Assembly (NCBI GenBank): GCA_964346565.1 | Contig: CAYFVS010000224.1 | Span: forward strand, 1-40,932 | Source: an uncultured candidatus Brocadiaceae bacterium | GTDB lineage: Bacteria > Planctomycetota > Brocadiia > SM23-32 | Length of the DNA: 40,932 nucleotides | Direction of reading: 5' to 3' | In this document: one piece after another, positions 9,287 to 22,776 of the stretch | Position numbering within the stretch: the first letter of the stretch is position 1 | Layout: the number at the start of each line of letters is the position of its first letter | Notes under the pieces: generated by a model | Databases searched by the model: none | Told to the model about the DNA's origin: nothing | What the model saw: only the letters and a program-made list of their open reading frames with translations | Translations under genes and position numbers: made by a program

Positions 9287-10717
9287 TCACTGTCCTTTTC
9301 CAGCGTGCACCGGCGCGGCCACCCGGAGATGGATGGGGACCTCTTCGTCGGGAGGATAGGGATACAGTGGCAGCTGCTCCCCTGCGGACCACTTCCGGCC
9401 GGCAAGCGCCGCCCATGCCCTGGCGCGCTCATCGAGCCCGTCGGCCAGTTGACCGGTAAGCGTCTCTGCGCCCGGATGGGTCGGCTTCGCGCCGTGTTTC
9501 CGTGCGTGGGCCCTGAACACCCACGGCCTGTCTATCAACATGCAGGGACGCAGCAGATTGCCGTCGTAAGGTATGCCCCGCCGGATGGCTTCGAACAGGG
9601 GGTGCTTCAACGCCTCGGTCAGGGTGGTGTCTTTCACGTTGTCCACGGCGAAGTGGCAGAAGACGCACGGCTCGATGTCGCCGTTGTTATTCACGTGGAA
9701 GTAGCGCTTCCCCCCCGCCATGCAGCCGTTGACCTCCGCCCCGTCGTTCCAGAAATCCGACAGGAAGATGGGATACTTGTTGCGCAGCTCGTAAACCCGC
9801 ACCCGCATGTGCTCGCGCTGCTCCGGGGTGACCATCAAGTCCAGGTTCGGGTTACGGCCGATGGGTATGTACTGGAAGTACCATCCGTAGAGACATCCGT
9901 GCTCGATCATGAGTTCGACGAACTCGTCCCTCATGATGGCCTCGGCGTTCCTCCGGGTGGCGGTGGCGCTGAAGCCGAACAGCACGCCCTCGCCCCGCAG
10001 GTTCTCCATCGCCTGGAGGACGAGCCGGTGGGTGCCCTTGCCCCGGCGGTCGTCGGTCAGCAGACGGTCGCCCTCGATGCTGAGCATGGGCATCACGTTG
10101 CCGCATTCGGCAAAGCGGGCGGCCACTTGCTGGTCAATGAGCGTGCCGTTGGTGTAGATCTGGAACTGGGAGTCCTGGTGCTCTCCGTAGAAGCGGTAAA
10201 GGTCCTTGCGCAGCGTGGGTTCGCCGCCGGAGAAGACGAAGAAGTGGATGCCCATCTTCTCCTCGGCCTCGGTCACCGCCCTGTCCAGCACATCGTAGGG
10301 CAGGTCTTCGCCCCTGCCGTACATCGCCGCCCAGCACCCTTCGCACGCCAGGTTGCACCGCGCCGTAACGTCGAACACGATGATGTACGGTGGGTCGTAG
10401 CCGTGCTGCTGGCGGAAGCGGCGTCGCCTGGAGCGGCTCAGGAACCAGGCGTAACCGTACAGATTCCGGATCAGGCAGGTCCTGGCCTTCGGATTCATCT
10501 CGGTGGAGATGCGCTTCAGCCACTGTCCGAAGGGATGCCCCTGCTCGACCAGCCACCTGAACCGGCGTGCCTGGCGCTTGTCCTCGGGATCGGTTGTCAC
10601 CTTCCCAAACAGCGACCAGATCCGGCCCAGAGAGTCCGGAGAGGAGTTCGCAATCAACTTGCTCAGCTGCCCGGCAACTGCCGACTTCGCTGCGTCTGTC
10701 GCCTTCTCAAAGACCAT
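9287..10717 (-). CDS. Radical SAM enzyme with a twitch/SPASM-like C-terminal Cys cluster, function unknown
   Basis: CNLACEGC (CxxxCxxC) follows an approximately 110-aa helical N-terminal region. It also has the FSGGEPTL glycine motif and a downstream NGCMAGG...PCVFCHF...RPCML Cys set. The start is taken at MVFEKATD (10717), preceded by GGGGGGTGG; the 507-aa listing adds an Arg-rich extension. Confidence 0.85.
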   Translation of the reverse strand: MVFEKATDAAKSAVAGQLSKLIANSSPDSLGRIWSLFGKVTTDPEDKRQARRFRWLVEQGHPFGQWLKRISTEMNPKARTCLIRNLYGYAWFLSRSRRRRFRQQHGYDPPYIIVFDVTARCNLACEGCWAAMYGRGEDLPYDVLDRAVTEAEEKMGIHFFVFSGGEPTLRKDLYRFYGEHQDSQFQIYTNGTLIDQQVAARFAECGNVMPMLSIEGDRLLTDDRRGKGTHRLVLQAMENLRGEGVLFGFSATATRRNAEAIMRDEFVELMIEHGCLYGWYFQYIPIGRNPNLDLMVTPEQREHMRVRVYELRNKYPIFLSDFWNDGAEVNGCMAGGKRYFHVNNNGDIEPCVFCHFAVDNVKDTTLTEALKHPLFEAIRRGIPYDGNLLRPCMLIDRPWVFRAHARKHGAKPTHPGAETLTGQLADGLDERARAWAALAGRKWSAGEQLPLYPYPPDEEVPIHLRVAAPVHAGKGQ

Positions 10718-10840
10718 AGTGCCACCCCCCCACGACCGAATGACTCGCGTTGCCCCGGTGCTTGACGCGCGTCGGTGCCCGTTCCCCGTCCTCCTTGCGG
10801 AGGCGAACACTTTCGGACGTACGCCACCGACAGAATACCC

Positions 10841-10896: not shown

Positions 10897-11928
10897 TCAC
10901 ATCTGTCGGCCCAGGCGCAGCAGAACTAGCAAGAAGAAAGGACCACCCAGCATCGCCGTGAGTACCCCCACCGGGAGTTCGGAGGGAGGAAACGCCGACC
11001 GCGCGACCGTGTCCGCCCCCGCCAGGAACGCGCCCCCCACAAACACCGACACGCACAGCAGTCGGCGATGGTCCGGCCCCAGGATGCCGCGTACCGCGTG
11101 GGGAATGATCAGGCCGACGAAGCCGATGGGACCGGCGATCGAAACCACCGACGCCGTCAGCAGGGAGCCCGCCAGGAATGCCTCCCGCTGCACGGCGCCC
11201 ACGGCCACCCCCCGGCCACCCGCCATCTCCTCCCCCAGGGCGAGCTGGTTCAGGGCGTTGGCCTCGGTGAACATCAGCACCACCGCGGGCAGGAAGAACG
11301 GCACCATGCTGCCCAGGCTGCGGTAGCCGTGCACATCCAGCCCCCCCATCAGCCAGCGGTCAACGATGACCAGCTTCTGTGGGTCACTGATGAAACGCAC
11401 GAACATGATGAGCGCGGAGCAGATCAGCCCCAACGTGACCCCGGCCAGCAGCAGAGTCAGCGGGGAGACGGTCCGCGAGCGCCGCGCGAGTGCGTATATG
11501 ATCGCGACGTTCACCAGCGCACCGGCCAGCGCGAAGAACTGCACCGAGGTCAGCGCGCCGAAAGCGGGCGCCCGCAGACCGAGCGAAATAGCTGCCACGG
11601 CCCATAGGGCGCCGCCTGCGCTCACACCCAGAGTGTGAGGCGTGGCCAGCGGATTGCGCAGGAGCGCCTGGAAGACGGCCCCGGCCACCGCCAGGCCGCC
11701 TCCGGCCAGCAGGCCAAGCAGCACGCGGGGCAGGCGCTGCATCAGCACGATGTTGGCCTGCCCCGGGTCCTCCGCCGTGCCCACCAGCACCCGCAGCACC
11801 TGCCCCGGCGGCACGTGCACCTGGCCGAACATCAGACAAACCGTCCCCACCACGACCCATAGCAGCAGGCCGCCGGCCAATGCCGTCCAGAAGCGGCCCG
11901 GCGTCAGATGTAAGTCAGCGCGTCTCAT
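10897..11928 (-). CDS. btuC: FecCD-family ABC permease (cobalamin/siderophore type, BtuC-like)
   Basis: QRLPRVLLGLLAGGGLAVAGAVFQALLRNPLATPHTLGVSAGG and the C-terminal LTAMLGGPFFLLVLLR are FecCD signatures. The start is taken at MRRADLHL (11928), overlapping the ATPase stop by 14 nt. It is the last gene of the riboswitch-led operon. Confidence 0.85.
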   Translation of the reverse strand: MRRADLHLTPGRFWTALAGGLLLWVVVGTVCLMFGQVHVPPGQVLRVLVGTAEDPGQANIVLMQRLPRVLLGLLAGGGLAVAGAVFQALLRNPLATPHTLGVSAGGALWAVAAISLGLRAPAFGALTSVQFFALAGALVNVAIIYALARRSRTVSPLTLLLAGVTLGLICSALIMFVRFISDPQKLVIVDRWLMGGLDVHGYRSLGSMVPFFLPAVVLMFTEANALNQLALGEEMAGGRGVAVGAVQREAFLAGSLLTASVVSIAGPIGFVGLIIPHAVRGILGPDHRRLLCVSVFVGGAFLAGADTVARSAFPPSELPVGVLTAMLGGPFFLLVLLRLGRQM

Positions 11929-12718
11929 GGGCTGCCTCTCCGAGGACAAGCACCAGGGGGGCGTGGGTGAACGGGTTCTCAATGATCCGCACGGGCGCCC
12001 CGTACACGCCGCCCAGCAGCGCCTCCTCCAGCACCTCCGAGGGCGCGCCCAGCCGCACAAGCTCCCCGCAGGACAGCAGCGCCAGCCGGTCGCAGAACTG
12101 CGCCGCTGCGTTCAGGTCGTGCGTTACCAGCGCGACGGCGATCCCCTGCCGCGAAAGGCGCCACAGCAGGTCCAGCACCTCCGTCTGGTGGTGGATGTCC
12201 AGGGCGGCGGTGGGTTCGTCCAGCAGCATGACGGACGGTTCCTGCGCCAGGATGCCGGCGATCAGCGCCCGCTGCTTCTCGCCGCCGGACAGGGTGGAGA
12301 AGACGCGCCCGGCCAGCTCTGTGGTATCCGTCTCCCGCATCGCCCGCTCCGTGGCGCGCGCGTCCTCGTCGGACAGGAACCCGAAGGCGCCCTGGTAGGG
12401 ATAGCGGCCCATGGCCACCACCTCCCCCACGCGGAACCGGAACGCCGTCTCCGGGCTCTGAGGCAGGAACGCGAGCTGGCGGGCCAGCTCGCGCCGGGCG
12501 ATGCCGCGAAGGTCGCGCCCGTCCAGGCTGGCCCGACCGGCTCCCGGCCGGAGGAACCCCGCCATCAGGCGCAGCAGCGTGCTCTTGCCCGAACCGTTCG
12601 GGCCCACGATGCCCAACACCTCCCCGGCGTGGACGCAAAGTGACACGTCGTGAAGCTCGAACTCTCCCGCCCCGTAGGAGAAGGAGCATTCCTGCAGTTG
12701 GAGCCCGTCCGCGTTCAC
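11915..12718 (-). CDS. btuD: ABC transporter ATP-binding protein (FepC/BtuD type)
   Basis: Walker A GPNGSGKST, signature LSGGEKQR and Walker B VMLLDEPT. The GTG start at 12718 forms a GTGA overlap with the stop of the upstream binding-protein gene. The listed 361-aa ORF is an antisense-run extension. Confidence 0.85.
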   Translation of the reverse strand: MNADGLQLQECSFSYGAGEFELHDVSLCVHAGEVLGIVGPNGSGKSTLLRLMAGFLRPGAGRASLDGRDLRGIARRELARQLAFLPQSPETAFRFRVGEVVAMGRYPYQGAFGFLSDEDARATERAMRETDTTELAGRVFSTLSGGEKQRALIAGILAQEPSVMLLDEPTAALDIHHQTEVLDLLWRLSRQGIAVALVTHDLNAAAQFCDRLALLSCGELVRLGAPSEVLEEALLGGVYGAPVRIIENPFTHAPLVLVLGEAAHETR

Positions 12719-13650
12719 GACGTGTCGTCCCCGTGCAGAAGGTCCGCCAGGGCTTCGGCGAGTTGGACGACCCGCGGCCCGGGGATCATCGCGTAGGTGG
12801 CGGTGACCACGTACACCCTCCCCTGCTGCACGGCGGGCAGCACGGGCAGCCCCCTCCACAGTCTGCGGACTTCTCGGCGAGCGGCTTGCGGGTCGCCGCC
12901 CTCCCCGTGCAGCTCCACTATCACCTCCGGCCGGCGCCGGATGACTGCTTCTTTGTTCACCGCGGCGTAGTTCCTCGGCAGGTCCGCGAACACGTTGCAT
13001 CCGCCGGCGGCCTGCAGCAGGTCGTGCAGGAACGTCCGCGGCCCAATCGTGTAGACGTTACTCAAGGAGCCCGGCTCGCGCCCTGTCACCAGCAGCACGT
13101 CTACGCGCGGTTCGTCGCTGACCCGCGCGCGCACCTTCGCCAGCCGGTAGCGCATCTCCGCGGCAACCAGCTCAGCCTGCGCCGGCCGTTCCAGCAGCTC
13201 GCCGACGCGCTCAATCGCCGCGAAGATGGATTCCAGATCCCTCAACTCCAGCAAGCGGAGCGCTATCCCATTGGCGCCGGCGAACTCACCCAGATCGGCC
13301 GCTTCTCCCTGGGAGATAATCAGGTCCGGCGACAGGCTCAGAATGCGTTCGAGGCTCGGGTTGAAGAAACCCCCGCAGGACTGCTTCGTGAGCGCCTCGG
13401 GAGGCCACTTCGCGTGCTGGCTCACGCCCACCACACGGTCGCCCCCGCTCACGGCGAACACGATCTCAGTAACCGCAGGTGACATGCACACGATGCGGCG
13501 GAACCGGTGGCGGCCACGGCCGGGCTCCGACCTCTGGCCCGCCGCAGTCACCGACGATGGTCTCACCGAAGCAAGCCACCAGGACAGGCAGAGGCCCACC
13601 ACTGCCGCCACGGCAACGAGCGCCGCTTTGCTCCAGCTTCTCTGCACCAC
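12715..13650 (-). CDS. btuF: Periplasmic/anchored substrate-binding protein, cluster A-II (BtuF/FhuD-like)
   Basis: N-terminal hydrophobic anchor, then RIVCMSPAVTEIVFAVSGGDRVVGVS...SLERILSLSPDLII, typical of BtuF-type binding proteins. It sits between cobS and the ABC ATPase. Confidence 0.75.
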   Translation of the reverse strand: MVQRSWSKAALVAVAAVVGLCLSWWLASVRPSSVTAAGQRSEPGRGRHRFRRIVCMSPAVTEIVFAVSGGDRVVGVSQHAKWPPEALTKQSCGGFFNPSLERILSLSPDLIISQGEAADLGEFAGANGIALRLLELRDLESIFAAIERVGELLERPAQAELVAAEMRYRLAKVRARVSDEPRVDVLLVTGREPGSLSNVYTIGPRTFLHDLLQAAGGCNVFADLPRNYAAVNKEAVIRRRPEVIVELHGEGGDPQAARREVRRLWRGLPVLPAVQQGRVYVVTATYAMIPGPRVVQLAEALADLLHGDDTS

Positions 13651-13678
13651 TGTCTCCTCCGGCGCTCGGCAAGGCGGC

Positions 13679-14461
13679 TCAGGGAAGGAGGCCGCCCCCG
13701 GACCACAGATGCGTTGCGTCCGGCCCGAGCAAAGCTACAGTTACGAGGACGACCGACTCGACGATCTCGCTCGACGCTCCGAGCAAGTCCCCCGTGACCC
13801 CGCCCACGCGACGGCGACACCACAGCCCAAACGACCTGGCGATCGCCCACCCGACGGCCAGCGCGGCCAGGCCGGCCACTCCCCACCCGATCAGCAGCAG
13901 AAATGCTGCCGACAGCAGCGCGGCAGCCAGGTGCCAGGGCCGCGCCTCGCGGACGAAGGCCGCCCCGGTGCCGCCCTCCGGGCGGGCGTAGGGCAACCAG
14001 AACGCCACGTCCACAATCAGCGCTCTGGAGGCGATGTACGCCGCCACGACCCAGGCCGAAAGGCCGAGTGCCGCCAGCCGCGCAAGGGCGGCCCACTTGA
14101 GCAGCAGGACGCACAGAACCGCGAGCACCCCGAACGTCCCGGTGTGCGGGTCCTTCATGATCCGGAGCGTCTCCTCTCTGTCGAGACCCCCGCCGAAGCC
14201 GTCGGCCCAGTCCGCCAGCCCGTCCAGGTGCAAGCCCCTGGTCAGCACCACTCCGCCTACCACCACGAACGCCGCCACGCCGCCCGGCCATTCATGTCCC
14301 GTGATCGCGTCCACGCCGAGCGCCAACGCGTAGAGCACCAGTCCCATCAGGCCGCCGACAACGCCGAACCAGGACAGCCCTGCCGACGGGCGCTGTGCAC
14401 CTCGGCCCGGCAAAGGCACGATGGACAACGTCCTGACAGCCGCTGCCAATCCGCTCAACAT
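13679..14461 (-). CDS. cobS: Adenosylcobinamide-GDP ribazoletransferase (cobalamin synthase)
   Basis: A polytopic 260-aa protein with the motifs LTRGLHLDGLADWADG and MKDPHTGTFGV. Confidence 0.9.
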   Translation of the reverse strand: MLSGLAAAVRTLSIVPLPGRGAQRPSAGLSWFGVVGGLMGLVLYALALGVDAITGHEWPGGVAAFVVVGGVVLTRGLHLDGLADWADGFGGGLDREETLRIMKDPHTGTFGVLAVLCVLLLKWAALARLAALGLSAWVVAAYIASRALIVDVAFWLPYARPEGGTGAAFVREARPWHLAAALLSAAFLLLIGWGVAGLAALAVGWAIARSFGLWCRRRVGGVTGDLLGASSEIVESVVLVTVALLGPDATHLWSGGGLLP

Positions 14462-14535
14462 CCGGCCTCCTTGCTGACCCTCTGACCGGGTAGGCGCGGC
14501 GTCTCGCCGCTCCTTGTCCGGCGGGGACGCCGGAC

Positions 14536-15609
14536 CTACCCCTTCCTTAAGAGGCTTCCGGCGTCGGAGACGCCTGCGGAACCGAAGGTCGCCATCTCGC
14601 TGTAGAGCTTGACGGCAGCTTCGATGACCGACATGGCAAGGGCAGCGCCCGTGCCCTCTCCCAGGCGCATCCTCAGGTCGAGCAAGGGCTCGACGCCCAT
14701 CACGTCAAGGACATGCCTGTGCCCAGTCTCATCGGAGCAGTGGCTGAAGAACAGATAGTCCGAGATGCGTTCGCAGAGACGCATCGCCACCAGTGCACCG
14801 GCCGTCGAGATGAACCCGTCAATGACGACGGGCATCTGAGAGGACGCCGCTCCCAGGACCAGCCCGCAGATGCCGGCGATCTCGAGACCCCCCAGGGCCG
14901 CAAGAGTGCCGAGGGGGTCCGCCAGGTGGTCTGCGTTGACGCTCAAAGCGCCCTCGACGACCTGCCTCTTCCTGGCAAGCGAGGCATCGTCCACGCCGGT
15001 TCCCCGGCCGGTTACCTGCTCGACCGGGCAGTCGAGTATGGCCGCGAACAGGGCGGCCGACGGGGTGGTGTTCCCGATGCCCATCTCCCCGGCGCCCAGC
15101 AGCGTGACGCCCTCCTCGGCGGCCTGGCGGGCCAGCTCGACGCCTACCAGCACGGCTGCCCTGGCTTCCTCCCCGGTCATCGCGGGGCCTTCGGCGATGT
15201 TGCGCGTGCCGGATGCCACCTTCCTGCGGCACAGACGCGGGGCGGCCTCAAGCGGGTCGTCCACCCCGATGTCCACCACCTGCACCTCCGCACCGATGTG
15301 GCGGGCCAGCACGTTGACGGCGGCTCCGCCGGCGAGCATGTTGCGCACCATCTGCGCGGTCACCTGCTTCGGGTAGGCGGAGACGCCCTCCTCGGACACT
15401 CCGTGGTCGCCGGCGAACGTGACAATCCTCTTCTTCCCCACGCGCGGGCGGTCCGTTCCGGTTATCAGGCAGTAGCGCAGGGCGATCTGCTCCAGCCTGC
15501 CCAGGCTGCCCGGCGGCTTGGTCAAGCTGTCCAGGTGGCGGCGCACTCGCTCCGCCAGGAGCAGCTCAACCGAGCCGATCGCCTCAATCGTCGCCTGCAG
15601 GGAGTCCAT
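14536..15609 (-). CDS. cobT: Nicotinate-nucleotide--dimethylbenzimidazole phosphoribosyltransferase
   Basis: LDSLTKPPGSLGRLEQIA, GEMGIGNTTPSAAL and RMRLGEGTGAALA are hallmark CobT motifs. Confidence 0.93.
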   Translation of the reverse strand: MDSLQATIEAIGSVELLLAERVRRHLDSLTKPPGSLGRLEQIALRYCLITGTDRPRVGKKRIVTFAGDHGVSEEGVSAYPKQVTAQMVRNMLAGGAAVNVLARHIGAEVQVVDIGVDDPLEAAPRLCRRKVASGTRNIAEGPAMTGEEARAAVLVGVELARQAAEEGVTLLGAGEMGIGNTTPSAALFAAILDCPVEQVTGRGTGVDDASLARKRQVVEGALSVNADHLADPLGTLAALGGLEIAGICGLVLGAASSQMPVVIDGFISTAGALVAMRLCERISDYLFFSHCSDETGHRHVLDVMGVEPLLDLRMRLGEGTGAALAMSVIEAAVKLYSEMATFGSAGVSDAGSLLRKG

Positions 15610-16132
15610 CCGCCCTCTCCTTCAAGGCCACCGGGACACCGCTGACCATCAGAATCACCTCATCCGCCAGGGCAGCGACTTCCTGATTCAGCCGCCCCAG
15701 CACGTCGCGGAACTTCCGAGCCGCTTCATTGGCCGGGACGATGCCCATGCCCACTTCGTTCGTTACAAGGATCAGATCACAGGGAGGTCCGGTGAGGACA
15801 CCGAGCAGCGCGACCAGTTCGGGCAGCTCGTCGGAGCAGGCGCCATGATAGTGTGCCAGGTTGCCCAGCCACACTGTCAGGCAGTCAACGACCGCAATGG
15901 CGACATCTGCGGGCAGTGACCGGATGGCCCCTGCCAGGTCCAGGGACTCCTCGACCGTGAGGAACCCGTCCCCCCGCTCCGTACGGTGGCGCGCGATACG
16001 GCGACGCATCTCATCATCCAGGGGCTCCGCTGTGGCGATGAACGCCCTTCGGGCGTACGGCTCGGCCAGTTGCAGGGCGTGGTTGCTCTTGCCACTCCTG
16101 CCGCCGCCGGTGACCAGTGTCACTTGCGCCAT
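15584..16132 (-). CDS. cobU: Bifunctional adenosylcobinamide kinase / adenosylcobinamide-phosphate guanylyltransferase
   Basis: It has the P-loop VTGGGRSGKSNHA plus RIARHRTER and VVDCLTVWL. The start is taken at MAQVTLVTGG (16132). Its 3' end overlaps the cobT start by 26 nt. Confidence 0.88.
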   Translation of the reverse strand: MAQVTLVTGGGRSGKSNHALQLAEPYARRAFIATAEPLDDEMRRRIARHRTERGDGFLTVEESLDLAGAIRSLPADVAIAVVDCLTVWLGNLAHYHGACSDELPELVALLGVLTGPPCDLILVTNEVGMGIVPANEAARKFRDVLGRLNQEVAALADEVILMVSGVPVALKERADGLPAGDD

Positions 16133-16145
16133 CGCAGGCGCTCCT

Positions 16146-16559
16146 CTACTGCCCCGCTCCTGTGAGGACCAGGTCGCCGCCCTCCCTGCGGAACATGAGG
16201 GTGGCCCGGCCTGCACGCTCGTCTGCGGCAGCGTGAGCGACGGTCACTCGCAGGTAGTCGCCGAACCAGACAGCTTCCTCGAGGCTGATGGCGGTGGCGC
16301 CCTTCAGGTCCGCCACCGCCGACAGCGCCGCTGCCCGCCCACGCCTGGAGGCATCCGTCGCGAGGAACTGCCCCGCCTGTCCGGGATCCTTCGCTGCCGA
16401 GCGGAGTATCTGCAGCGCCTCCCGCACCTCCGGGTCGGCCGCTGTGGCCTCGGAGCGGCCATACTCCGGGCCCGCGGTCGCGACCACCAGGGCGACCGCC
16501 AGCACGGCAACCGCGCCGGCCGCTGCCACGGCGATCTTCGCTGTGGCGTTCCACTCCAC
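16146..16559 (-). CDS. Hypothetical small membrane-anchored protein (137 aa)
   Basis: It has an N-terminal hydrophobic anchor (AKIAVAAAGAVAVLAVALVVATAG) and then a soluble domain of about 100 aa with no motif I recognise. The gene lies 25 nt after the pseudopilin-like gene and 13 nt before cobU. The overlapping 150-aa frame is Arg/Gly-rich and looks spurious. Confidence 0.5.
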   Translation of the reverse strand: MEWNATAKIAVAAAGAVAVLAVALVVATAGPEYGRSEATAADPEVREALQILRSAAKDPGQAGQFLATDASRRGRAAALSAVADLKGATAISLEEAVWFGDYLRVTVAHAAADERAGRATLMFRREGGDLVLTGAGQ

Positions 16560-16584
16560 GCCTGCTCCTCATCAGGCTAAGGGT

Positions 16585-17343
16585 CTACTTGGCCGGGTCG
16601 AAGTACATGTCCTCGGTGTCGCAGACCACGCCGAGGTAATCCTCGTCGGGCTCCATGGCGGGATCGGGCTCAAGGGAACTCACGTGACCGTCCGCCCACA
16701 GTACGTTCGCGCGACCGCCGTGGCGGAAGTGGGCGTAGCCCAGGTCCCACGGAATCGCTTGAGAGGGAGGTGTCCAGTACCAGTTCTCCTGGAGCGGCCC
16801 CATCCAGTTGCGCGCGGAGTCGCCGAACAGCAGCGTGCTGGTGCTTCTGCGCACCACGGACTCGTGCCTGCCCACGTAAGTTGCCTTGTAGTCGGGCTCC
16901 CACCAGTTGCCTTCCTCCACCAGCGTCGTCAGGTAGTGGTAGTTGTAGGCGTAGCCGGTGCACGGCCCCCCGGCGCGTGGCACGTAATGGCGCCACTTCA
17001 GGGCCGGGCACTGCCAGACCTCCCGGCTGTCACCCAGGAAGGGGGACAGATAGCCGCACGAGAAGTCCACCTCCTCGTAGAGCCCGCCGTAGAGGCCGAA
17101 GAACTGCCTGCCGCCCCCTGTATCCGCCCGGTACTCCCCGCAGGACGGCAGGTGGCCCCCATGGTTGGCGATGTACATCACAGTAGCCGCGCCGAGGTTG
17201 TGCAGGTGGTCCTGGCAGGAGGTGGACTCCGCTCGCGCGCGGACGGTTGCCAGGGCGGGCATGAGCATGCCCGCCAGGATGGCCATGATGGCTATGACGA
17301 CCAGCAGTTCGATCAGAGTGAACGCGCGCCCGAGCATGTCCAT
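16585..17343 (-). CDS. Prepilin-type N-terminal cleavage/methylation-domain protein of the DUF1559 / H-X9-DG family (pseudopilin-like)
   Basis: MDMLGRAFTLIELLVVIAIMAILAGMLMP is a class III signal peptide / pilin N-terminus. The C-terminal HGGRANVLWADGHV matches the H-X9-DG motif. The start is at 17343 (or 17337), preceded by the GGGGAGG SD. It is the first gene downstream of the cobalamin riboswitch. Confidence 0.85.
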   Translation of the reverse strand: MDMLGRAFTLIELLVVIAIMAILAGMLMPALATVRARAESTSCQDHLHNLGAATVMYIANHGGHLPSCGEYRADTGGGRQFFGLYGGLYEEVDFSCGYLSPFLGDSREVWQCPALKWRHYVPRAGGPCTGYAYNYHYLTTLVEEGNWWEPDYKATYVGRHESVVRRSTSTLLFGDSARNWMGPLQENWYWTPPSQAIPWDLGYAHFRHGGRANVLWADGHVSSLEPDPAMEPDEDYLGVVCDTEDMYFDPAK

Positions 17344-17346
17344 GCA

Positions 17347-17381
17347 CCTCCCCGAGTGCAGGGGTTGGGGCGCCGGGGAGG
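17347..17381 (-). promoter_or_regulatory. Candidate SD-sequestering hairpin (expression platform of the riboswitch)
   Basis: On the minus-strand RNA, CCUCCCCG (17381..17374) is perfectly complementary to CGGGGAGG (17354..17347). The latter contains the Shine-Dalgarno of the pseudopilin-like gene. The stem is 8 bp with a 19-nt loop. Confidence 0.35.
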
Positions 17382-17504
17382 AGACAACGGCTGCGCGCCC
17401 GGCGAGCCGACTATCGCGGGGCCAAGAAGAAACGGCCCACGCCGCCGGCACCGGGGGCGGAGGCCATTGCAGGGGCATGCGTACCGCCTGTCCTGGCGCC
17501 TCCC

Positions 17505-17695
17505 TCAACACCCGAAGGTCAACGGCACCGCGTCGGCGGGCAGGTCTCCTGACTTCCGGGTCGTCGCTACCAGCCCGGCCTTCCCATCCCCGCGTGGGGG
17601 ACAGTGGCTCATCGTGGGCCTTCGCTACCGGTCACAGTGGCGGGTCCGTAACGGATTCGCACCGTTTTCCCTGGGCCCTCGCGGGGCCTCGGCCT
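17505..17695 (-). promoter_or_regulatory. Cobalamin (AdoCbl/B12) riboswitch aptamer
   Basis: The minus strand reads GGGAAAACGGUGCGAAUCCGUUACGGACCCGCCACUGU...GAGCCACUGUCCCC...GGGAAGGCCGG...GAAGUCAGGAGACCUGCCC. This covers the conserved GGGAA and GGUG-GAAUCC elements, GCCACUG...GGGAAGGC, and a perfect B12 box AGUCAGGAGACCUGCC (17554..17539). The boundaries are approximate. Confidence 0.9.
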
Positions 17696-17709
17696 CGCCG
17701 ACGCAAACT

Positions 17710-17738
17710 ACTATACTCCTCACTGCGGCATCAGTCAA
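17710..17738 (-). promoter_or_regulatory. Sigma70-type promoter of the riboswitch-led operon (TTGACT - 17 nt - TATAGT)
   Basis: On the minus strand, TTGACT is at 17738..17733 and TATAGT at 17715..17710 with a 17-nt spacer. It lies immediately after the stop of the upstream gene and about 15-20 nt before the aptamer. Confidence 0.55.
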
Positions 17739-17744
17739 GCGCGC

Positions 17745-18578
17745 TCAGACGGCCAGTATTCGGTCCATCGCTTCGCTCAACTCGGCCAGGGCGTCGTGGT
17801 CCAGCCCGAAGAACTCCGCAACGCACGGCCCGTCGTAGCCCACCTGACGGAGGGACTCCATGACTGCCGGCCAGGCCACATCCCCCTCCGTCAGGGGGCA
17901 GAAGCCCTCCAGCGTCCCCACGGACCGCTTGAAGTCCTTGAAGTGCACGCAGCTCACTCGCGGCCCGAGGATACGGATCCAGTCCTCCGGGTAGCCGAAC
18001 GCGATCACGTTCCCCACGTCGAAGTAGGAGCCGACGCGCACCGAACCGAATCCGTCAATGAAGTCGCGCATCTCCAGCGGGCTGAGCAGCAAGCGGTTCC
18101 ATACGTTCTCGATGCCCAGGGTGACGCCGGCTTCCTCGGCCGTGGGCACTATCCGGGCAATGCCCTCCCTCATGCGCTGCATGGCAACGTCGTAGGGCAC
18201 GTGTTCGTTCCCGTCCGCGCCGGGCGGCGCCAACATGCCCGGCACGACCAGCAGCGTGTCGAGGCCCAGCCACGCGGCCAGGTGCACGCTCCTCAGGATC
18301 ACTTCGACCCCCCTTTGCCGGATGCTCTCGTCATCGGCGGTCAAAGGGTACTGCCAGCCCAGGCCGCTGGCCAGGCTCGTCAGCCGCACACCCGCCCGTT
18401 CAGCCGCTTCCAGCAGCTCGGCGCAGTCTTCCTCACTGCTGCGCGGAGTGAGCAGCCCTTCCTCGCCGACGGCCGGCTCGACCCCGTCGAACCCATGCCT
18501 GTGCGCCTCTTCGAAGAGGGATGCTGCCGGGCGCTCTGTGTTGCCCTTCAGAGCCCAGATGCTGATTCCCTTCAACAT
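17745..18578 (-). CDS. Sugar phosphate isomerase/epimerase (xylose-isomerase-like TIM barrel, AP endonuclease 2 family)
   Basis: 277 aa. GFDGVE..., GIENVWN, YFDVGN and HFKD form a pattern typical of this TIM-barrel family. Confidence 0.8.
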   Translation of the reverse strand: MLKGISIWALKGNTERPAASLFEEAHRHGFDGVEPAVGEEGLLTPRSSEEDCAELLEAAERAGVRLTSLASGLGWQYPLTADDESIRQRGVEVILRSVHLAAWLGLDTLLVVPGMLAPPGADGNEHVPYDVAMQRMREGIARIVPTAEEAGVTLGIENVWNRLLLSPLEMRDFIDGFGSVRVGSYFDVGNVIAFGYPEDWIRILGPRVSCVHFKDFKRSVGTLEGFCPLTEGDVAWPAVMESLRQVGYDGPCVAEFFGLDHDALAELSEAMDRILAV

Positions 18579-18764: not shown

Positions 18765-21002
18765 TCAGTCCAGCCGGAGCGCTTCGGCCCCTATGAGCAG
18801 AACGCGCTCCCCCGGCTCTATGCCGGCAACGCTCACGGCCTCGGCGGCGGCCTCGCGCAGGGCCTGCTGGTCGCTCGCCAGTGTTTCGGTCAGGGCGGAG
18901 CGCAACTGGTCCGGCGCGCCTTCGCCGGTGCGTTTCATCACTGCCGCCGCTGCATAGCAGGCCGTCGCCTTTATCTCGGTCGTACTGCCCTGCCGAACGA
19001 CCCGCGCCAGGGGCAGCAGGCACTGCTGCGAGCCGATCGCTGCCAGCGCGTCCATGGCCGCTACGGTTACCTCGTCCCGGTAGCCGCGCAGGGCCTTGAT
19101 GAGAGCGGGCTCGAGCTGGCCAAGCGGGTACTGCGTCCGCGCGGGGTCCACAACGTTGACCGCCTGTACAGCCTTCAGGACCAGGGCCTCTTCCTCCTCG
19201 GTGAAGGCGGAGCGGCTCCTCGCCAGCACCTGTTGCACGATGGGCTCCAGCTTCGCCGCACGGACATCGTCAGCGGTCAGGATCTGCGTCACTGCCTCGT
19301 AGCCGGCCACGTCCGCCACGGGCCCTTCCGGACCGACGATGGCGTAGATGGGCAGCCCGGTGGTGCGCGGGTCGGACTGGAGGAGGTCCAGCACCCGCCC
19401 GAACAGCACCTCGGGCGCCCCGGCGGAGATGAACGCCACGTCCACGGAGGGCTGCATCGCAAGAGCGGCCTGGATGCTGCCCTCGTGCACCCTGGTCTCG
19501 ATGGTCGCCAGGCCCTGCGCGCGCAGGATGCTGGTCAGGGTGTTGCGCGTCTGGAAGTCGTTCACCAGTACCAGCGCGTGCCGACTGGCGGCGGCATGCA
19601 GCGCGGCGGACATGACGTCGGTGATCGTCTGCGGCTGTCCGCACTCACCGCTCGGGCAAGAACGCACGAGCGTGATGGCCGCGTTGTAGCGCACGTCCTT
19701 CATCCCGGACTGCAAGCCCTTCAGCAATGCCGCCACGGTCCCCTCAGCGGCCATGCCCGTGCTGGCGCTCAGCTTGTCGCGCACTGCCTTGACAAGGTAG
19801 AGGGAAGCCGGAGCGTCCTCAGCGTCGAGCGTCATAGACAACGCATGGGCCACGACCGGCGTTTCCAGCAGGCTCACCAGCACCGGCGCCTGCACGGCCA
19901 AGACCTCCGCCCTCTGGGCGGCGTCCGTGCGCCGCTCTTCGGGAACGGGCTCTCCCCCGAACAAGACCTCCTCGGATCTGTAGATCTCGCACAGGGCTAA
20001 CTGCCGCACGGTTGCGGCTGCCAGCAGCGCCTGGAGGTCGGTGTTGCCGGGCGCCAGCTCCAGCCCGTCCAGGGCTGTCTCAGCGGCCATTCGCTGGTAG
20101 TAGAGGTAGTTCGGAATGGTCTCGTAGACGATCCTCAGGGGCATGGTTTCGCCATCAGAGTCCCACGACCACACGTCGGCGCTGACGCCGAAGGTGTAGC
20201 CGATTCGCGGCGCGTCCTCGCGGAAGTAAGCCTTGCCCAGCGCCACGTACTGGGACACGGCGGAGCCGAGTTCCTCCAGCGTCTTGTCCGTTATGTTGTC
20301 CAGTGCCTCGGCGGCGGCCTCGACCACCGGCGCGGCGCTGTCGGGATCCTCCCATGCGGCCATGAGGGCGGGCACTGCCCGTACGTCCCCGATGTGCCCG
20401 AGCACGGCAGCGACCCGGGTGCGTAGCAGCGAGTCGTCCGACTCCCGCAGGACCTCGATCAGCGGCAGGCAGGCGTCCCGCTGCAGGTCGGCCAGCAGTG
20501 AGAAAGCCCTCCCGACGACCTCCTGCTGGTCTGGCTCCGCCATCTCCAGCAGTGGCATCAGATAGGGCACGGCGTACGGCCCGTATCCCCTGAGGTGGAC
20601 ACGCGCCTTGCCATAGACCGCCGCCTTGTCCGAGGTGAAGTTGGCGATCAGTTCGTCGGCATTGCGCACGGGCTTGCGCTGCTCACGGACCGCCCGCATC
20701 ATCATCTCCATGATGCGCTCGACCTGGTCGGCGAGTTCCTCCCGCTCCTTCATCTTGAAGAAGATGCCCAGTTCGGCGCGGTCGCGCATCTGGAGTGCGG
20801 CCCGCATGCTGGGCTCCAGGCTGAGCAGCTCGTCGAATGCCTCACGCGCCTGCCCGTACTCGCCCGTCTGGTAGTAGGTAATCGCCTGCTCAAAGAGCTC
20901 GACCGCCCTCTGGTCCTCCGCCTCCCCGGCGCGGGCAACGCCCGCCGAAAGCAGCGTCGCCACGGCCAATACCACTACCCACCGCTTCAGATGAATGCAC
21001 AT
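18765..21002 (-). CDS. Secreted HEAT-repeat / TPR-like protein (745 aa)
   Basis: The signal peptide is MCIHLKRWVVVLAVATLLSAGVARA, from the ATG at 21002 with an AGGGAG RBS. A TPR-like helix pair (AITYYQTGEYGQAREAF) is followed by repeated HEAT/PBS-lyase-like units (RTRVAAVLGHIGDVRAVPALM; VRYNAAITLV...). Confidence 0.7.
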   Translation of the reverse strand: MCIHLKRWVVVLAVATLLSAGVARAGEAEDQRAVELFEQAITYYQTGEYGQAREAFDELLSLEPSMRAALQMRDRAELGIFFKMKEREELADQVERIMEMMMRAVREQRKPVRNADELIANFTSDKAAVYGKARVHLRGYGPYAVPYLMPLLEMAEPDQQEVVGRAFSLLADLQRDACLPLIEVLRESDDSLLRTRVAAVLGHIGDVRAVPALMAAWEDPDSAAPVVEAAAEALDNITDKTLEELGSAVSQYVALGKAYFREDAPRIGYTFGVSADVWSWDSDGETMPLRIVYETIPNYLYYQRMAAETALDGLELAPGNTDLQALLAAATVRQLALCEIYRSEEVLFGGEPVPEERRTDAAQRAEVLAVQAPVLVSLLETPVVAHALSMTLDAEDAPASLYLVKAVRDKLSASTGMAAEGTVAALLKGLQSGMKDVRYNAAITLVRSCPSGECGQPQTITDVMSAALHAAASRHALVLVNDFQTRNTLTSILRAQGLATIETRVHEGSIQAALAMQPSVDVAFISAGAPEVLFGRVLDLLQSDPRTTGLPIYAIVGPEGPVADVAGYEAVTQILTADDVRAAKLEPIVQQVLARSRSAFTEEEEALVLKAVQAVNVVDPARTQYPLGQLEPALIKALRGYRDEVTVAAMDALAAIGSQQCLLPLARVVRQGSTTEIKATACYAAAAVMKRTGEGAPDQLRSALTETLASDQQALREAAAEAVSVAGIEPGERVLLIGAEALRLD

Positions 21003-21086
21003 GTGTCGCTCCCTATCGAATGCGAGGTGAGACTGAGTTTTGACCAACGCCCGCCCCGGTGCTCTCGGGCGGCGCTGTATCTTGGT

Positions 21087-22397
21087 TCATAGAAAGGGCT
21101 TCTCGGGCTCGATCAGGTCCGCGTAGGTCTCCCGCCGCCGAATCAGCCGGCAGCGCTCGCCGTCTACCAGGACCTCCGGGGCCCGTGGACGGCCGTTGTA
21201 GTTCGAACTCATGCTGAACCCATACGCGCCGGCGCTGAACACGGCCAGCAGCTCGCCCTGCTCCGTCGGCGGCAACGGCCGGTCCTTCGCCAGAAAATCG
21301 CCCGTCTCGCAGACGGGACCCACCACGTCCACGATCTCTGTGGCGAAGCCTTCGTGGGCTCTCTGCCCGGGGCGCACGACCCCGGGCATCCCGTCCGCAC
21401 TCCGCACCGGCCAGATGCGATGGAACGCGCCGTACAGAGTCGGCCGAATCAGGTCGTTCATCGCGGCGTCGCAGACGAGGAACCGCTTGCCGTACTGAGT
21501 GTCCTTCCGGTAGAGGACCCGTGACAGCAAAACGGCGCTGTTACCAGCAATGTACCGGCCGGGCTCAATGATAACCCGGCAGGCCGATTTTTCAAGATAA
21601 CACTGCACTGCGGAGGCGTAATCAACCGGCCCTACGGCCTCCTCGCCGGTCTCCGAGATGCAGTAGCCGCCGCCGATGTTCAGATGATCCAGCCGGCAGC
21701 CGACCTCCCGCAGCCTTTCAACCAGCGGCAGCACCAAGGCAAGCGCCCGCTGGTAGGGTTCGGTCGCGGGGATCGGAGAGCCAAGGTGCATGTGGACTCC
21801 GACCACCTGAACGCCTTCCCAGTCGGACGCCTCCCGTATCAGCTTCTCAGCTTCAGAGGTACCTATACCAAACTTCGTGCCCCCTTTGCCAGTGGTCGTC
21901 TTCTCGTGGGTGCCTGCGTCAACGTCGGGGTTGATCCGTATCGCCGCCCTGGCGGTCACGCCCATCCGCCCGGCGATGCGCTCGATCTGGCGCAGTTCGG
22001 ACCGCGACTCCACGTCGAACATGTATATCCCCTCGCCGAGGGCATACTCGATCTCCTCGGCCGTCTTGCCCACGCCGGCGAAGACCACTTTGGCCGGGTC
22101 GCCGCCTGCCGCCAGGACGCGGTGAAGCTCCCCGCCGCTGACGATGTCGAATCCGCTGCCTTCAGCCGCCAGAAGCCGCAGAATGGAGATGTTGCCACAG
22201 GCCTTCACCGAGAAGCAGACCATCGGGTCCCACCGGCCGAACGCGTCCCGGATGTGGCGGAACCGCTGCCTGAGGGAGGAAGCGCTGTAAACGTAGCACG
22301 GCGTGCCCCACTCCTCGGCGATGCGGGAGGCCCGGACTTCCTCGCAGTGGAGTTCGCCCTGCCGGTATTGGAACGTCTCTTCAATCGGCACGACCAT
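21087..22397 (-). CDS. lysA: Diaminopimelate decarboxylase
   Basis: GTPCYVYS, CFSVKAC (PLP lysine), HMHLGS, LNIGGGY and CETGD are class III PLP decarboxylase / LysA motifs. The true start may be the GTG two codons in (22391), because GGAGG abuts the ATG. Confidence 0.93.
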   Translation of the reverse strand: MVVPIEETFQYRQGELHCEEVRASRIAEEWGTPCYVYSASSLRQRFRHIRDAFGRWDPMVCFSVKACGNISILRLLAAEGSGFDIVSGGELHRVLAAGGDPAKVVFAGVGKTAEEIEYALGEGIYMFDVESRSELRQIERIAGRMGVTARAAIRINPDVDAGTHEKTTTGKGGTKFGIGTSEAEKLIREASDWEGVQVVGVHMHLGSPIPATEPYQRALALVLPLVERLREVGCRLDHLNIGGGYCISETGEEAVGPVDYASAVQCYLEKSACRVIIEPGRYIAGNSAVLLSRVLYRKDTQYGKRFLVCDAAMNDLIRPTLYGAFHRIWPVRSADGMPGVVRPGQRAHEGFATEIVDVVGPVCETGDFLAKDRPLPPTEQGELLAVFSAGAYGFSMSSNYNGRPRAPEVLVDGERCRLIRRRETYADLIEPEKPFL

Positions 22398-22776
22398 CCT
22401 CCGGTCCTAACAGGGAACGAACTGACCCAGGAGGATACACGAAAAGCGGCGGGGATGAAAGCTCTGCGCGCCCATCGGCGGTCCCGTCGGTAGGCGAGAG
22501 TTGGGAAGCCGGCGGACCGCCGTGCCCTCCCGGGATCGGGCCCCCACGGAGCTTCGGTGGTCACGGCGCAGCATTGCGCGCGCGTTGCTTACGCAAAGAC
22601 AATACCACACACGCCTGCTCGCGCGCGATTATGACTCTCACTATTCCATCCCATTGTCTCCAAGGGACTTACGTCTACGAGCCCTGAAGCCGGGCAGCGT
22701 CGCACGCCCCCGGAGGGTGTGTGGGGAACTCGACACCGGGCGGCCCGCCCATCGCCCGATCTCCACAGTCGGATTA

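Follow-up and report, generated by a model that had tools for sequence, protein, structure and literature searches.

A prepilin-type H-X9-DG protein gene behind a cobalamin riboswitch at the head of a corrinoid salvage and import operon in Brocadiaceae

The Riboswitch-Led Operon

The subject of this article is an operon in a 40.9-kb stretch of DNA from an uncultured Brocadiaceae bacterium of the Planctomycetota (contig CAYFVS010000224.1; termed "the window", meaning the whole stretch that was analysed), in which a cobalamin riboswitch stands before a gene for a prepilin-type protein (the pilin-like protein, PIL), a gene for a small protein (the partner) and six genes for the salvage and import of corrinoids. 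Rfam models were run over the entire window, and the cobalamin riboswitch RF00174 was their sole match, with the conserved B12 box readable inside the aptamer (Table 1). A preliminary description of this DNA had proposed the riboswitch, a near-consensus promoter in front of it and eight co-directional genes behind it, separated by gaps of −26 to +74 nucleotides (nt). The covariance model confirms the aptamer, the sigma-70-type promoter is present, family models recover all the genes in the proposed order and at the proposed places, and the computed gaps are, in order, +25, +13, −26, +74, +28, −4 and −14 nt. Sites of the quality of this promoter number 3 in 7.5 kb, against 0.3 expected.

Behind the PIL and the partner, cobU, cobT and cobS are followed by a BtuFCD-type set, that is, a Peripla_BP_2 protein, an ABC ATPase and a FecCD permease encoded together in the operon. 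The transporter misses the equivalog cut-offs for BtuF (91.5 bits, cut-off 234), BtuC (about 207, cut-offs 334–461) and BtuD (142, cut-off 281), and heme and siderophore models score it about as high as the BtuFCD equivalogs do; the riboswitch and the cob genes are therefore the basis for assigning B12 as its substrate. The PIL gene and cobU are not separated by any terminator-like site, and the genes are packed like a single operon. The preliminary description had also remarked that the operon holds no TonB-dependent receptor; in fact none turned up anywhere in the window, nor did any gene for a secretin or for pilus machinery. Elsewhere the window carries genes for sugar metabolism, Lon, a HEAT/TPR protein and the like. 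The window btuD gene has the same length as that of the closest relative (locus L001).

Table 1. Features of the riboswitch-led operon in the window.
Feature	Position	Strand	Remarks
Sigma-70-type promoter TTGACT-17-TATAGT	17738..17710	−	10/12 positions matched
Cobalamin riboswitch aptamer, RF00174	17713..17522	−	102.6 bits, gathering score 31.5; E 9.8e-25; full model, 1-189
B12 box AGTCAGGAGACCTGCC	17554..17539	−	conserved box read in the aptamer
Leader hairpin at the site of the orthologues' conserved intrinsic terminator	17422..17462	−	degenerate: weak stem, interrupted U tract
Hairpin of CCUCCCCG (17381..17374) with the Shine-Dalgarno region CGGGGAGG (17354..17347)	17347..17382	−	candidate translational off-switch
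PIL, prepilin-type H-X9-DG protein, DUF1559-like	17343..16585 (or from ATG 17337)	−	252 aa, or 250 aa from ATG 17337
Partner	16559..16146	−	137 aa; no Pfam/NCBIfam family; N-terminal transmembrane helix, NTF2-like model
cobU, adenosylcobinamide kinase/guanylyltransferase	16132..15584	−	PF02283 178.8 bits; NF004469 170.8, cut-off 161
cobT, nicotinate mononucleotide:dimethylbenzimidazole (NaMN:DMB) phosphoribosyltransferase	15609..14536	−	TIGR03160 462.7 bits, cut-off 319.3
cobS, cobalamin 5'-phosphate synthase	14461..13679	−	PF02654 164.7 bits, cut-off 23.2; TIGR00317 108.8, just below 110
btuF-like, Peripla_BP_2 periplasmic binding protein	13650..12715	−	PF01497 84.2 bits
btuD-like, ABC ATPase	12718..11915	−	PF00005 113.9 bits; GTG start, 4-nt overlap with the btuF stop
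btuC-like, FecCD permease	11928..10897	−	PF01032 285.9 bits

The Pilin-Like Protein

The PIL starts with MDMLGRA/FTLIELLVVIAIMAIL, where the slash marks the putative cleavage site of a class III signal peptide (GRA/FTLIELLVV), and continues as a long alpha-1 helix and an aromatic-rich head with the signature NWMGPLQENWYWTPPSQ; NWMGPLEENWFWTPPS and GNWWDPDY are the signature segments of its subfamily. It passes the N-terminal methylation models PF07963 (27.4 bits, cut-off 21.2) and TIGR02532 (26.3, cut-off 16.3), as well as the H-X9-DG model TIGR04294 at residues 205–223 (24.5 bits, cut-off 19). The earlier label of DUF1559/H-X9-DG protein thus stands for its second half only: with Pfam DUF1559 (PF07596, SBP_bac_10) just the C-terminal 45 residues align, at 20.7 bits against a threshold of 23.3. 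Some members of the subfamily carry precomputed PF07596 matches. By these profile scores the window PIL is a borderline or peripheral member of DUF1559, and prepilin-type H-X9-DG protein is the label that it passes.

Homologues of the PIL fall into two tiers. A tight subfamily of about 245 residues scores 216–564 bits at 44–100% identity, and the next scores are far lower, at 160 and 130 bits. Invariant throughout the tight subfamily are F+1, T+2, L+3 and E+5 of the predicted mature N-terminus and, in the head, D175, S176, E186, N187, W188, F206, R207, H208 and D218, and the Trp-rich signature [EQ]ENW[FY][WLY], which 48 of its 49 members carry, occurs in only 2 of the 71 hits further away. When a subfamily profile is compared with solved structures, some 55 residues at the start of the mature protein align with alpha-1 of filament-forming pilins and of GspG (PDB 5wda), with E-values down to 7e-13, and this alignment begins exactly at residue 1 of the solved proteins. 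The GspG model TIGR01710 itself covers only the N-terminal helix of the window protein (residues 6–61) and gives 31.8 bits, against an equivalog cut-off of 88.85. The AlphaFold2 (AF2) model, with a mean confidence (pLDDT) of 81, consists of a 50-residue N-terminal helix and an alpha/beta head.

The window PIL has Ala rather than Gly at −1 of the putative cleavage site, from which it had been suggested earlier that the protein escapes processing and stays anchored in the membrane. Prepilin peptidases of classical systems tolerate Ala at this position poorly to partially. Across the tight subfamily the −1 residue is, however, Ala in 33 cases, Gly in 10 and Ser in 2 (38 Ala and 12 Gly among the distant relatives), the residues that follow the site are invariant as listed above, and the N-terminus aligns with filament pilins. 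Ala at −1 is therefore a family trait, and we rejected it as a sign of non-processing. The Glu at +5 of pilins matters for the packing of subunits in filaments and not for anchoring in the membrane, so that its invariance speaks more for a genuine pilin-like subunit than for an anchor alone.

The 137-Residue Partner

The partner is a rare and fast-evolving protein. An exhaustive phmmer search of 1.84 billion representative proteins gave 32 clusters, with 22–54% identity among the orthologues, and a word-index search returned only the query itself. The hidden Markov model (HMM) of the partner matches only loci of the tight PIL subfamily, always directly after the PIL, with one exception, a weak match in locus L101. 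Its AF2 model, built from 33 homologues, reaches a pLDDT of 93 and places a transmembrane (TM) helix at residues 5–28, behind which three helices pack on a curved sheet of four strands. In Foldseek the top matches are proteins of the NTF2 fold, with a probability of 1.0 but an E-value of only 3e-3 and TM-scores of 0.4–0.64. The NTF2-like cone is a fold that usually forms a ligand pocket. With respect to the known surface binders of B12, namely the BtuG beta-propeller and the DUF4465 proteins BtuH and BtuJ, neither the PIL nor the partner has a Pfam match, and the PIL has no fold match in the PDB.

Recurrence Across Phyla

The preliminary description had left the linkage of riboswitch and pilin-like gene to a survey of related genomes, and the outcome is strongly positive, in three phyla and beside two different inner-membrane transporters. 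Among the Planctomycetota, RF00174 lies directly before the PIL at 76–112 bits in all ten loci that have upstream DNA, including the window (the others are L001, L002, L003, L005, L006, L011, L013, L014 and L037, from metagenome-assembled genomes (MAGs) labelled Brocadiia or Brocadiaceae). The order is riboswitch, PIL, partner, an optional CobU-CobT-CobS block, BtuF, BtuD and BtuC, the cob genes being in the same operon in the window, L001, L013 and L015. Two further loci, L010 and L015, have the same gene order; their contigs end upstream of the PIL, so that a riboswitch is not scorable there.

A scan of 185,579 species genomes for the tight PIL subfamily gave 32 loci, all of them from MAGs, of which 21 belong to marine Verrucomicrobiota. 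In these 21 species the genes run MetH, PIL, partner and DUF6580 wherever flanking DNA is present, often with overlapping stop and start codons. One lineage of them carries a small DUF4346 pterin-binding-like protein between metH and the PIL (L007:7547-7918). Since the same PIL-partner pair is found with BtuFCD or with MetH and DUF6580, the pair appears to act independently and upstream of the type of inner-membrane transporter. No TonB-dependent transporter was seen in any locus examined, as far as the contigs reach.

The linkage extends beyond the tight subfamily. Two Armatimonadota loci (L038 and L039) encode PILs of 34–38% identity with RF00174 immediately upstream at 100–118 bits, and L039 continues, without a partner, into BtuF, BtuC, BtuD and a second BtuF. 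Three distant hits, P0055 (L041), P0080 (L042) and P0054 (L043), had been taken as negative controls, as unrelated DUF1559 genes. Two of them, P0055 and P0080 (35–37% identity), turned out to have RF00174 about 110–180 nt upstream, at 108 and 84 bits, so that a restriction of the linkage to the tight subfamily was no longer upheld. The third, P0054, is without a riboswitch and diverges from a Peripla_BP_2/FecCD/ABC operon with a DUF7676 gene (L043:406-4612); an HbpS-like protein is encoded nearby (L043:8324-8761), and P0054 could be a paralogue for another tetrapyrrole or for a siderophore. In L008, two RF00174 aptamers in tandem (L008:7446-7637 and L008:7776-7973, 109 and 75 bits) precede the intermediate relative P0050 (41% identity), with a CobQ/CbiA-type gene upstream.

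We then retrieved 80 metagenome loci with the head domains of the distant hits, P0055 being the reference, and searched them with a covariance model built from 16 PIL-linked riboswitches; as the E-values of this model are rough, bit scores and confirmation by Rfam were used. The search covered 358 kb on both strands and gave 35 hits in 34 loci, every one of them on the PIL strand and upstream of it. Rfam assigned nine of the weaker hits to RF00174 and one to AdoCbl-II and left two unconfirmed, and one extra riboswitch was found by Rfam alone. Of the 80 loci, 55 were evaluable, having a pilin start that could be recognised and no less than 400 nt of upstream DNA, and 31 of these have a linked riboswitch: adjacent in 20 (125–373 nt before FTLIEL) and distal in 11 (0.9–2.6 kb, with same-strand genes in between). 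Of the rest, 2 are doubtful and 22 are without a riboswitch, and a search with the filters off gave only noise, at most 12.4 bits, in 25 riboswitch-negative loci. Several of the negatives are 57–79% identical to distal-riboswitch loci and have limited upstream DNA on their contigs, so the true linked fraction is probably higher. The element upstream of the PIL in one locus (L071:191-281, 50.1 bits) belongs to the AdoCbl-II class RF01689 and not to RF00174, and the linkage thus spans riboswitch classes.

Expression Platform of the Leader

The leaders of the Planctomycetota orthologues keep a TATA-type element at the same aligned position as the window promoter, a conserved hairpin right after the aptamer and, some 75–100 nt further downstream, a GC-rich hairpin with a U tract. 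In the orthologue alignment, 5 of 23 predicted leader pairs retain their pairing through compensatory changes on both sides, and the GC-rich hairpins of L002, L003 and L037, folded alone, are classical intrinsic terminators with 10–12-bp GC stems and U6. Judged by these features, most of the lineage would regulate the operon by transcription attenuation through an intrinsic terminator.

The degenerate terminator of the window is common to its closest relative, L001. The window leader also has a hairpin that would cover the Shine-Dalgarno (SD) region (−23.7 kcal/mol, z = −1.5), the SD lying three nt before the ATG at 17343, and the leader of L001 carries the same sequence elements. Given the degenerate terminator together with the SD-covering hairpin, the window leader probably acts mainly by translational occlusion of the ribosome-binding site. 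Regulation by a terminator only was dropped for the window, where the global leader fold is no more stable than that of shuffled sequences (z = −0.15), and sequestration of the ribosome-binding site is preferred; the terminator stands in the orthologues.

Neighbouring Genes

Distant PILs also have B12 genes downstream: BtuF-BtuC-BtuD in L090 and L114, BtuF in L091, and BtuF together with CobU, CobS and CobT in L074. A recurrent neighbour is DUF6580 (PF20221), a multi-TM protein of about 190 residues with an invariant Cys in FSPVYAICFCAG. Among the Verrucomicrobiota (L004, L007, L016-L036; e.g., L007:9171-9764) it follows metH, PIL and partner where downstream DNA is present, and it lies downstream of the PIL in the metagenome loci L088 (4471-5136), L102 (4348-5121), L093 and L098, including the order riboswitch, PEP-CTERM protein, PIL, DUF6580. 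This placement makes DUF6580 a candidate inner-membrane corrinoid permease, for which a BtuM-like role would rest on size and context. Searches of the PDB with the single sequence and with a profile gave no match to BtuM, to the S-components of energy-coupling factor (ECF) transporters, to any other transporter or to any PDB chain, and DUF6580 has no NCBIfam model.

Several of the genes between distal riboswitches and PILs encode extracytoplasmic proteins. DUF4465 proteins are found there in L086 (1855-3666) and L121 (2758-3516), the latter with a PEP-CTERM-like tail, and the DUF4465 domain has been shown experimentally to bind B12 (PMC13398666). Secreted PEP-CTERM proteins, which are exosortase substrates, are the first gene behind the riboswitch and before the PIL in six loci (L079, L088, L100, L102, L111 and L121), and in L049 a second PIL stands in tandem between the riboswitch and the PIL. 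We also observed an unnamed secreted family of about 315–380 residues in the same position (L100:1153-2100, L106:2526-3671, L117:509-1486 and L118:1165-2172), which matches nothing in Pfam and is marked by a conserved W-x-GSGTNRA-x-LVIEWS and by FYRI-x-A-x-RP at the C-terminus; it may likewise be a component of the envelope that B12 regulates.

Around the operon of the window itself, a xylose-isomerase-like TIM-barrel gene (AP_endonuc_2, 17745-18578, minus strand) ends just ahead of the riboswitch promoter, and such a gene is found directly upstream of the riboswitch in L001, L002/L012, L003, L005 and L037 as well. Its assignment as the cobamide-remodelling enzyme CbiR, which would be its sole link to B12, is unsupported (18.6 bits, cut-off 105). 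Upstream of it, a HEAT/TPR protein of 773 residues and an ornithine/diaminopimelate (Orn/DAP) decarboxylase are encoded (18765-22406, minus strand) in an order kept in L002, L003 and L005, and the wider neighbourhood therefore reflects lineage synteny that is not necessarily functional. On the other side, an 86-nt gap with a promoter-like site (10869-10841) separates btuC from a radical S-adenosylmethionine (SAM)/SPASM gene (9287-10810, minus strand), whose best matches, all sub-threshold, are NirJ2/AhbD-type enzymes. This gene is syntenic after btuC in L001, L002/L012, L010 and L015.

A Proposed Role in Corrinoid Acquisition

The analysis establishes the riboswitch, the operon architecture, the pilin-type N-terminus of the PIL and its recurrent genomic coupling to B12 genes. 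On balance it seems probable to us, reasoning from sequence and gene context, that the locus is a B12-repressed operon for corrinoid salvage and import, whose first two products would be envelope components acting before inner-membrane transport. That the first two genes are tied to the acquisition of corrinoids, as had been proposed in the preliminary description, is well supported by the genomic context, and we are confident that the PIL has a part in acquiring or handling them. The PIL-partner pair persists while both the transporter (BtuFCD or DUF6580) and the mode of regulation (riboswitch or co-transcription with metH) change, and in other phyla the PIL persists without the partner, with B12 riboswitches in front of it and known or likely extracytoplasmic proteins for B12 beside it; the simplest explanation would be that the PIL acts on the corrinoid in the envelope. 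As the pairing of riboswitch and pilin-like protein recurs in three phyla, the riboswitch-linked PILs probably belong to a previously unrecognised B12-scavenging apparatus.

The following scheme may be proposed. When corrinoid is scarce, the riboswitch leader would permit expression of the operon. The class III signal peptide would direct the PIL into the inner membrane, and the PIL would probably be cleaved before Phe+1 and show its aromatic-rich head on the long alpha-1, either as a membrane-anchored periplasmic stalk or as the tip subunit of a short type-IV-filament or pseudopilus. Its head would capture corrinoid in the envelope and pass it to BtuF-BtuCD or, in other lineages, to the DUF6580 membrane protein, while the TM-anchored NTF2-like partner, which co-evolves with the PIL subfamily, would be a co-receptor or hand-over factor. 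CobU, CobT and CobS could then finish imported precursors of the cobinamide type. It is plausible that the aromatic-rich head offers the corrinoid-binding surface and that the partner has the role just described. The steps that we infer are the in vivo repression of the operon, the cleavage of the PIL, the binding of corrinoid by its head, the assembly of a filament and the direction in which the corrinoid is handed over. For direct binding by the PIL head we see an even chance, and that the PIL works within a filament that replaces the BtuB step is doubtful.

Several points weigh against this reading. The Verrucomicrobiota PIL loci contain no RF00174, and in the Armatimonadota and most distant relatives the PIL comes without a partner. 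The loci compared are all from MAGs or metagenome contigs, and the metagenome sample was picked by similarity to a riboswitch-linked protein, so that its linked fraction of 56% does not extend to DUF1559 as a whole. As H-X9-DG is common to the whole superfamily, this motif cannot be the B12 determinant. A Foldseek search of the PDB with the PIL model gave nothing at E ≤ 0.001, the top matches being connexins and polymerases with TM-scores below 0.15, and with no PDB neighbour for the head a function cannot be assigned by fold. No prepilin peptidase, secretin, pilus or type II secretion system (T2SS) machinery gene lies in the window or in the flanks examined, and filament assembly by the PIL would be a purely inferential step. 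As for regulation, the global fold of the window leader has no extra stability over shuffles, and neither does the hairpin at the terminator position (−14.1 kcal/mol).

Alternative Explanations

In one alternative, the PIL would be a B12-regulated minor pseudopilin of a T2SS-like system that exports or displays other corrinoid binders (DUF4465 and PEP-CTERM proteins, or the partner) and does not bind corrinoid itself. Its N-terminus is indeed nearest to GspG and type IV pilins, and 11 metagenome loci have a gene for a secreted PEP-CTERM, DUF4465 or unnamed secreted protein between the riboswitch and the PIL. We nevertheless hold this to be improbable, because the window and the other nine Planctomycetota loci with upstream DNA encode no secreted binder besides the TM-anchored partner, the PIL is the gene directly behind the riboswitch in 20 loci, the GspG equivalog score falls far short, and an adaptor would not be expected to track importer genes so closely. 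Slightly less credible still is a periplasmic enzyme or chaperone, anchored by the pilin helix and made of the PIL with or without the partner, that would process corrinoids by decyanation, lower-ligand removal or remodelling before CobUTS rebuild them. The operon shared with cobU, cobT and cobS in the window and three relatives, the invariant polar residues of the head (D175, S176, E186, N187, R207, H208 and D218) and the fact that NTF2-like folds are often enzymes all speak for such a role. Most loci, however, are without cobUTS, the PIL being coupled only to transporters or metH, the invariant H-X9-DG residues are found also in relatives that have no B12 riboswitch despite ample upstream DNA, and neither the family models nor the fold search with the PIL gave similarity to an enzyme family.

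The PIL could also be an envelope protein tuned by B12 for a purpose other than uptake, for example a surface or adhesion structure for B12-poor niches, its position in the operon being historical. B12 riboswitches do govern non-uptake genes in other bacteria, and many riboswitch-linked PILs stand alone with no transporter genes nearby (e.g., L041 and L042). Without a corrinoid role it would be difficult to account for the independent coupling, from phylum to phylum, to BtuFCD, DUF6580, MetH, CobUTS and DUF4465, and we give this explanation little credence. The least probable proposal, and in our view a very improbable one, is that the riboswitch controls only the PIL and the partner, with cobU through btuC transcribed separately. 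A promoter-like site matching 9 of 12 positions (14184..14157) and terminator-like sites (e.g., 13919..13904) do occur inside cobS, but the terminator-like sites of the operon are confined to this gene, and the cobS-internal sites lie in coding sequence and are at chance frequency (2.6 expected). The gaps from the PIL to cobT are moreover only 25, 13 and −26 nt, and in loci without cobUTS the PIL-partner pair abuts btuF directly. A B12-repressed salvage and import operon, with the PIL and the partner as envelope components, thus stays the reading that we prefer.

Wider Significance

Few functional labels are as direct as a riboswitch, since it tells which molecule the cell lacks when it makes the protein, and the recurrent linkage to B12 riboswitches provides the first concrete and testable ligand hypothesis for the H-X9-DG/DUF1559 superfamily. 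Members of marine and soil communities trade in B12 as a key commodity, and the coupling of PILs to BtuFCD, DUF6580, MetH, CobUTS and DUF4465 points to a possible uptake route outside the BtuB-TonB paradigm. Further candidate parts are nominated with it: the DUF6580 permease, the small NTF2-like family and the unnamed secreted family. In a broader extension, which at present we think unlikely, the members of a large clade of the H-X9-DG/DUF1559 superfamily would be capture subunits with ligand specificity, built into type-IV-filament or pseudopilus machines, and would fish nutrients across the outer membrane in the Planctomycetota-Verrucomicrobiota-Chlamydiota (PVC) group and the Armatimonadota; the B12-linked members would be specific for corrinoids and stand in for the TonB-dependent BtuB, and the many remaining paralogues of each genome would each serve another substrate. 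Substrate-binding pili-like fibres of Planctomycetes are reported to bind dextran (PMC5394234), which fits pilus-type capture of nutrients and makes this extension worth testing.

Comparison with Known Systems

Full-text literature searches, whose coverage leaves out most subscription journals, gave no report that links pilin-like proteins to B12, and a 2025 review of the phylum makes no mention of B12, pilins or DUFs. The nearest functional analogue is the B12 relay of Bacteroides, in which BtuB works with the surface lipoproteins BtuG, BtuH and BtuJ/DUF4465 (PMC13398666, PMC13616437). As in the PIL loci, extracytoplasmic accessories are encoded behind cobalamin riboswitches with btuFCD-type importers, and DUF4465 genes co-occur with the PIL in L086 and L121. 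The PIL is not a member of this relay: in place of a lipoprotein signal it carries the class III signal of prepilins and a pilin alpha-1, no similarity could be detected between its head and the beta-propeller and beta-jellyroll binders, its binding of B12 is a prediction, and the PIL loci examined hold no TonB-dependent transporter.

The nearest mechanistic analogue is the competence pilus or pseudopilus, where ComGC or PilA together with ComEA, a periplasmic or anchored receptor, imports DNA. The PIL locus likewise places a pilin-type protein and a small membrane-anchored protein beside an inner-membrane importer of a large substrate, and as a working analogy the fibre would capture the substrate and the periplasmic partner would retain it. 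The PIL does not belong to this system either, since it would handle a cofactor of 1.3 kDa, no gene for an assembly ATPase, a secretin or a peptidase is linked to it, and the formation and retraction of a filament would be hypothetical. With the T2SS pseudopilins GspG-K it shares the N-terminal methylation motif and alpha-1 (the TIGR01710 and PDB 5wda matches described above), whereas it lies far below the GspG and GspH equivalog cut-offs, has a head of about 190 residues with a C-terminal H-X9-DG and is placed under a B12 riboswitch.

In many Planctomycetes no paralogue family is larger than that of the DUF1559/H-X9-DG proteins, of which P. limnophila has 68, two being essential; what they do has been described as unknown (PMC10632474), and DUF1559 has also been called a putative solute-binding family (PMC2754498). 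The PIL has the same layout of a prepilin N-terminus followed by a C-terminal H-X9-DG, but the window protein is shorter (~245 aa), scores below PF07596 and belongs to a discrete subfamily with a Trp-rich signature within a wider B12-riboswitch clade. Compared with classical riboswitch-controlled cob/btu operons (cobUTS with btuFCD), the window operon has an ordinary aptamer, a putative expression platform of an ordinary kind and ordinary genes for salvage and import, whereas its two extra leading genes of unnamed families and its lack of an outer-membrane receptor gene set it apart. What is new is an H-X9-DG pilin-like protein as the first riboswitch-controlled gene, a dedicated NTF2-like partner, and the breadth of the linkage over Planctomycetota and Armatimonadota and, via metH, Verrucomicrobiota. 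In our view the operon belongs with those for B12 uptake and has accessory proteins of a class without precedent.

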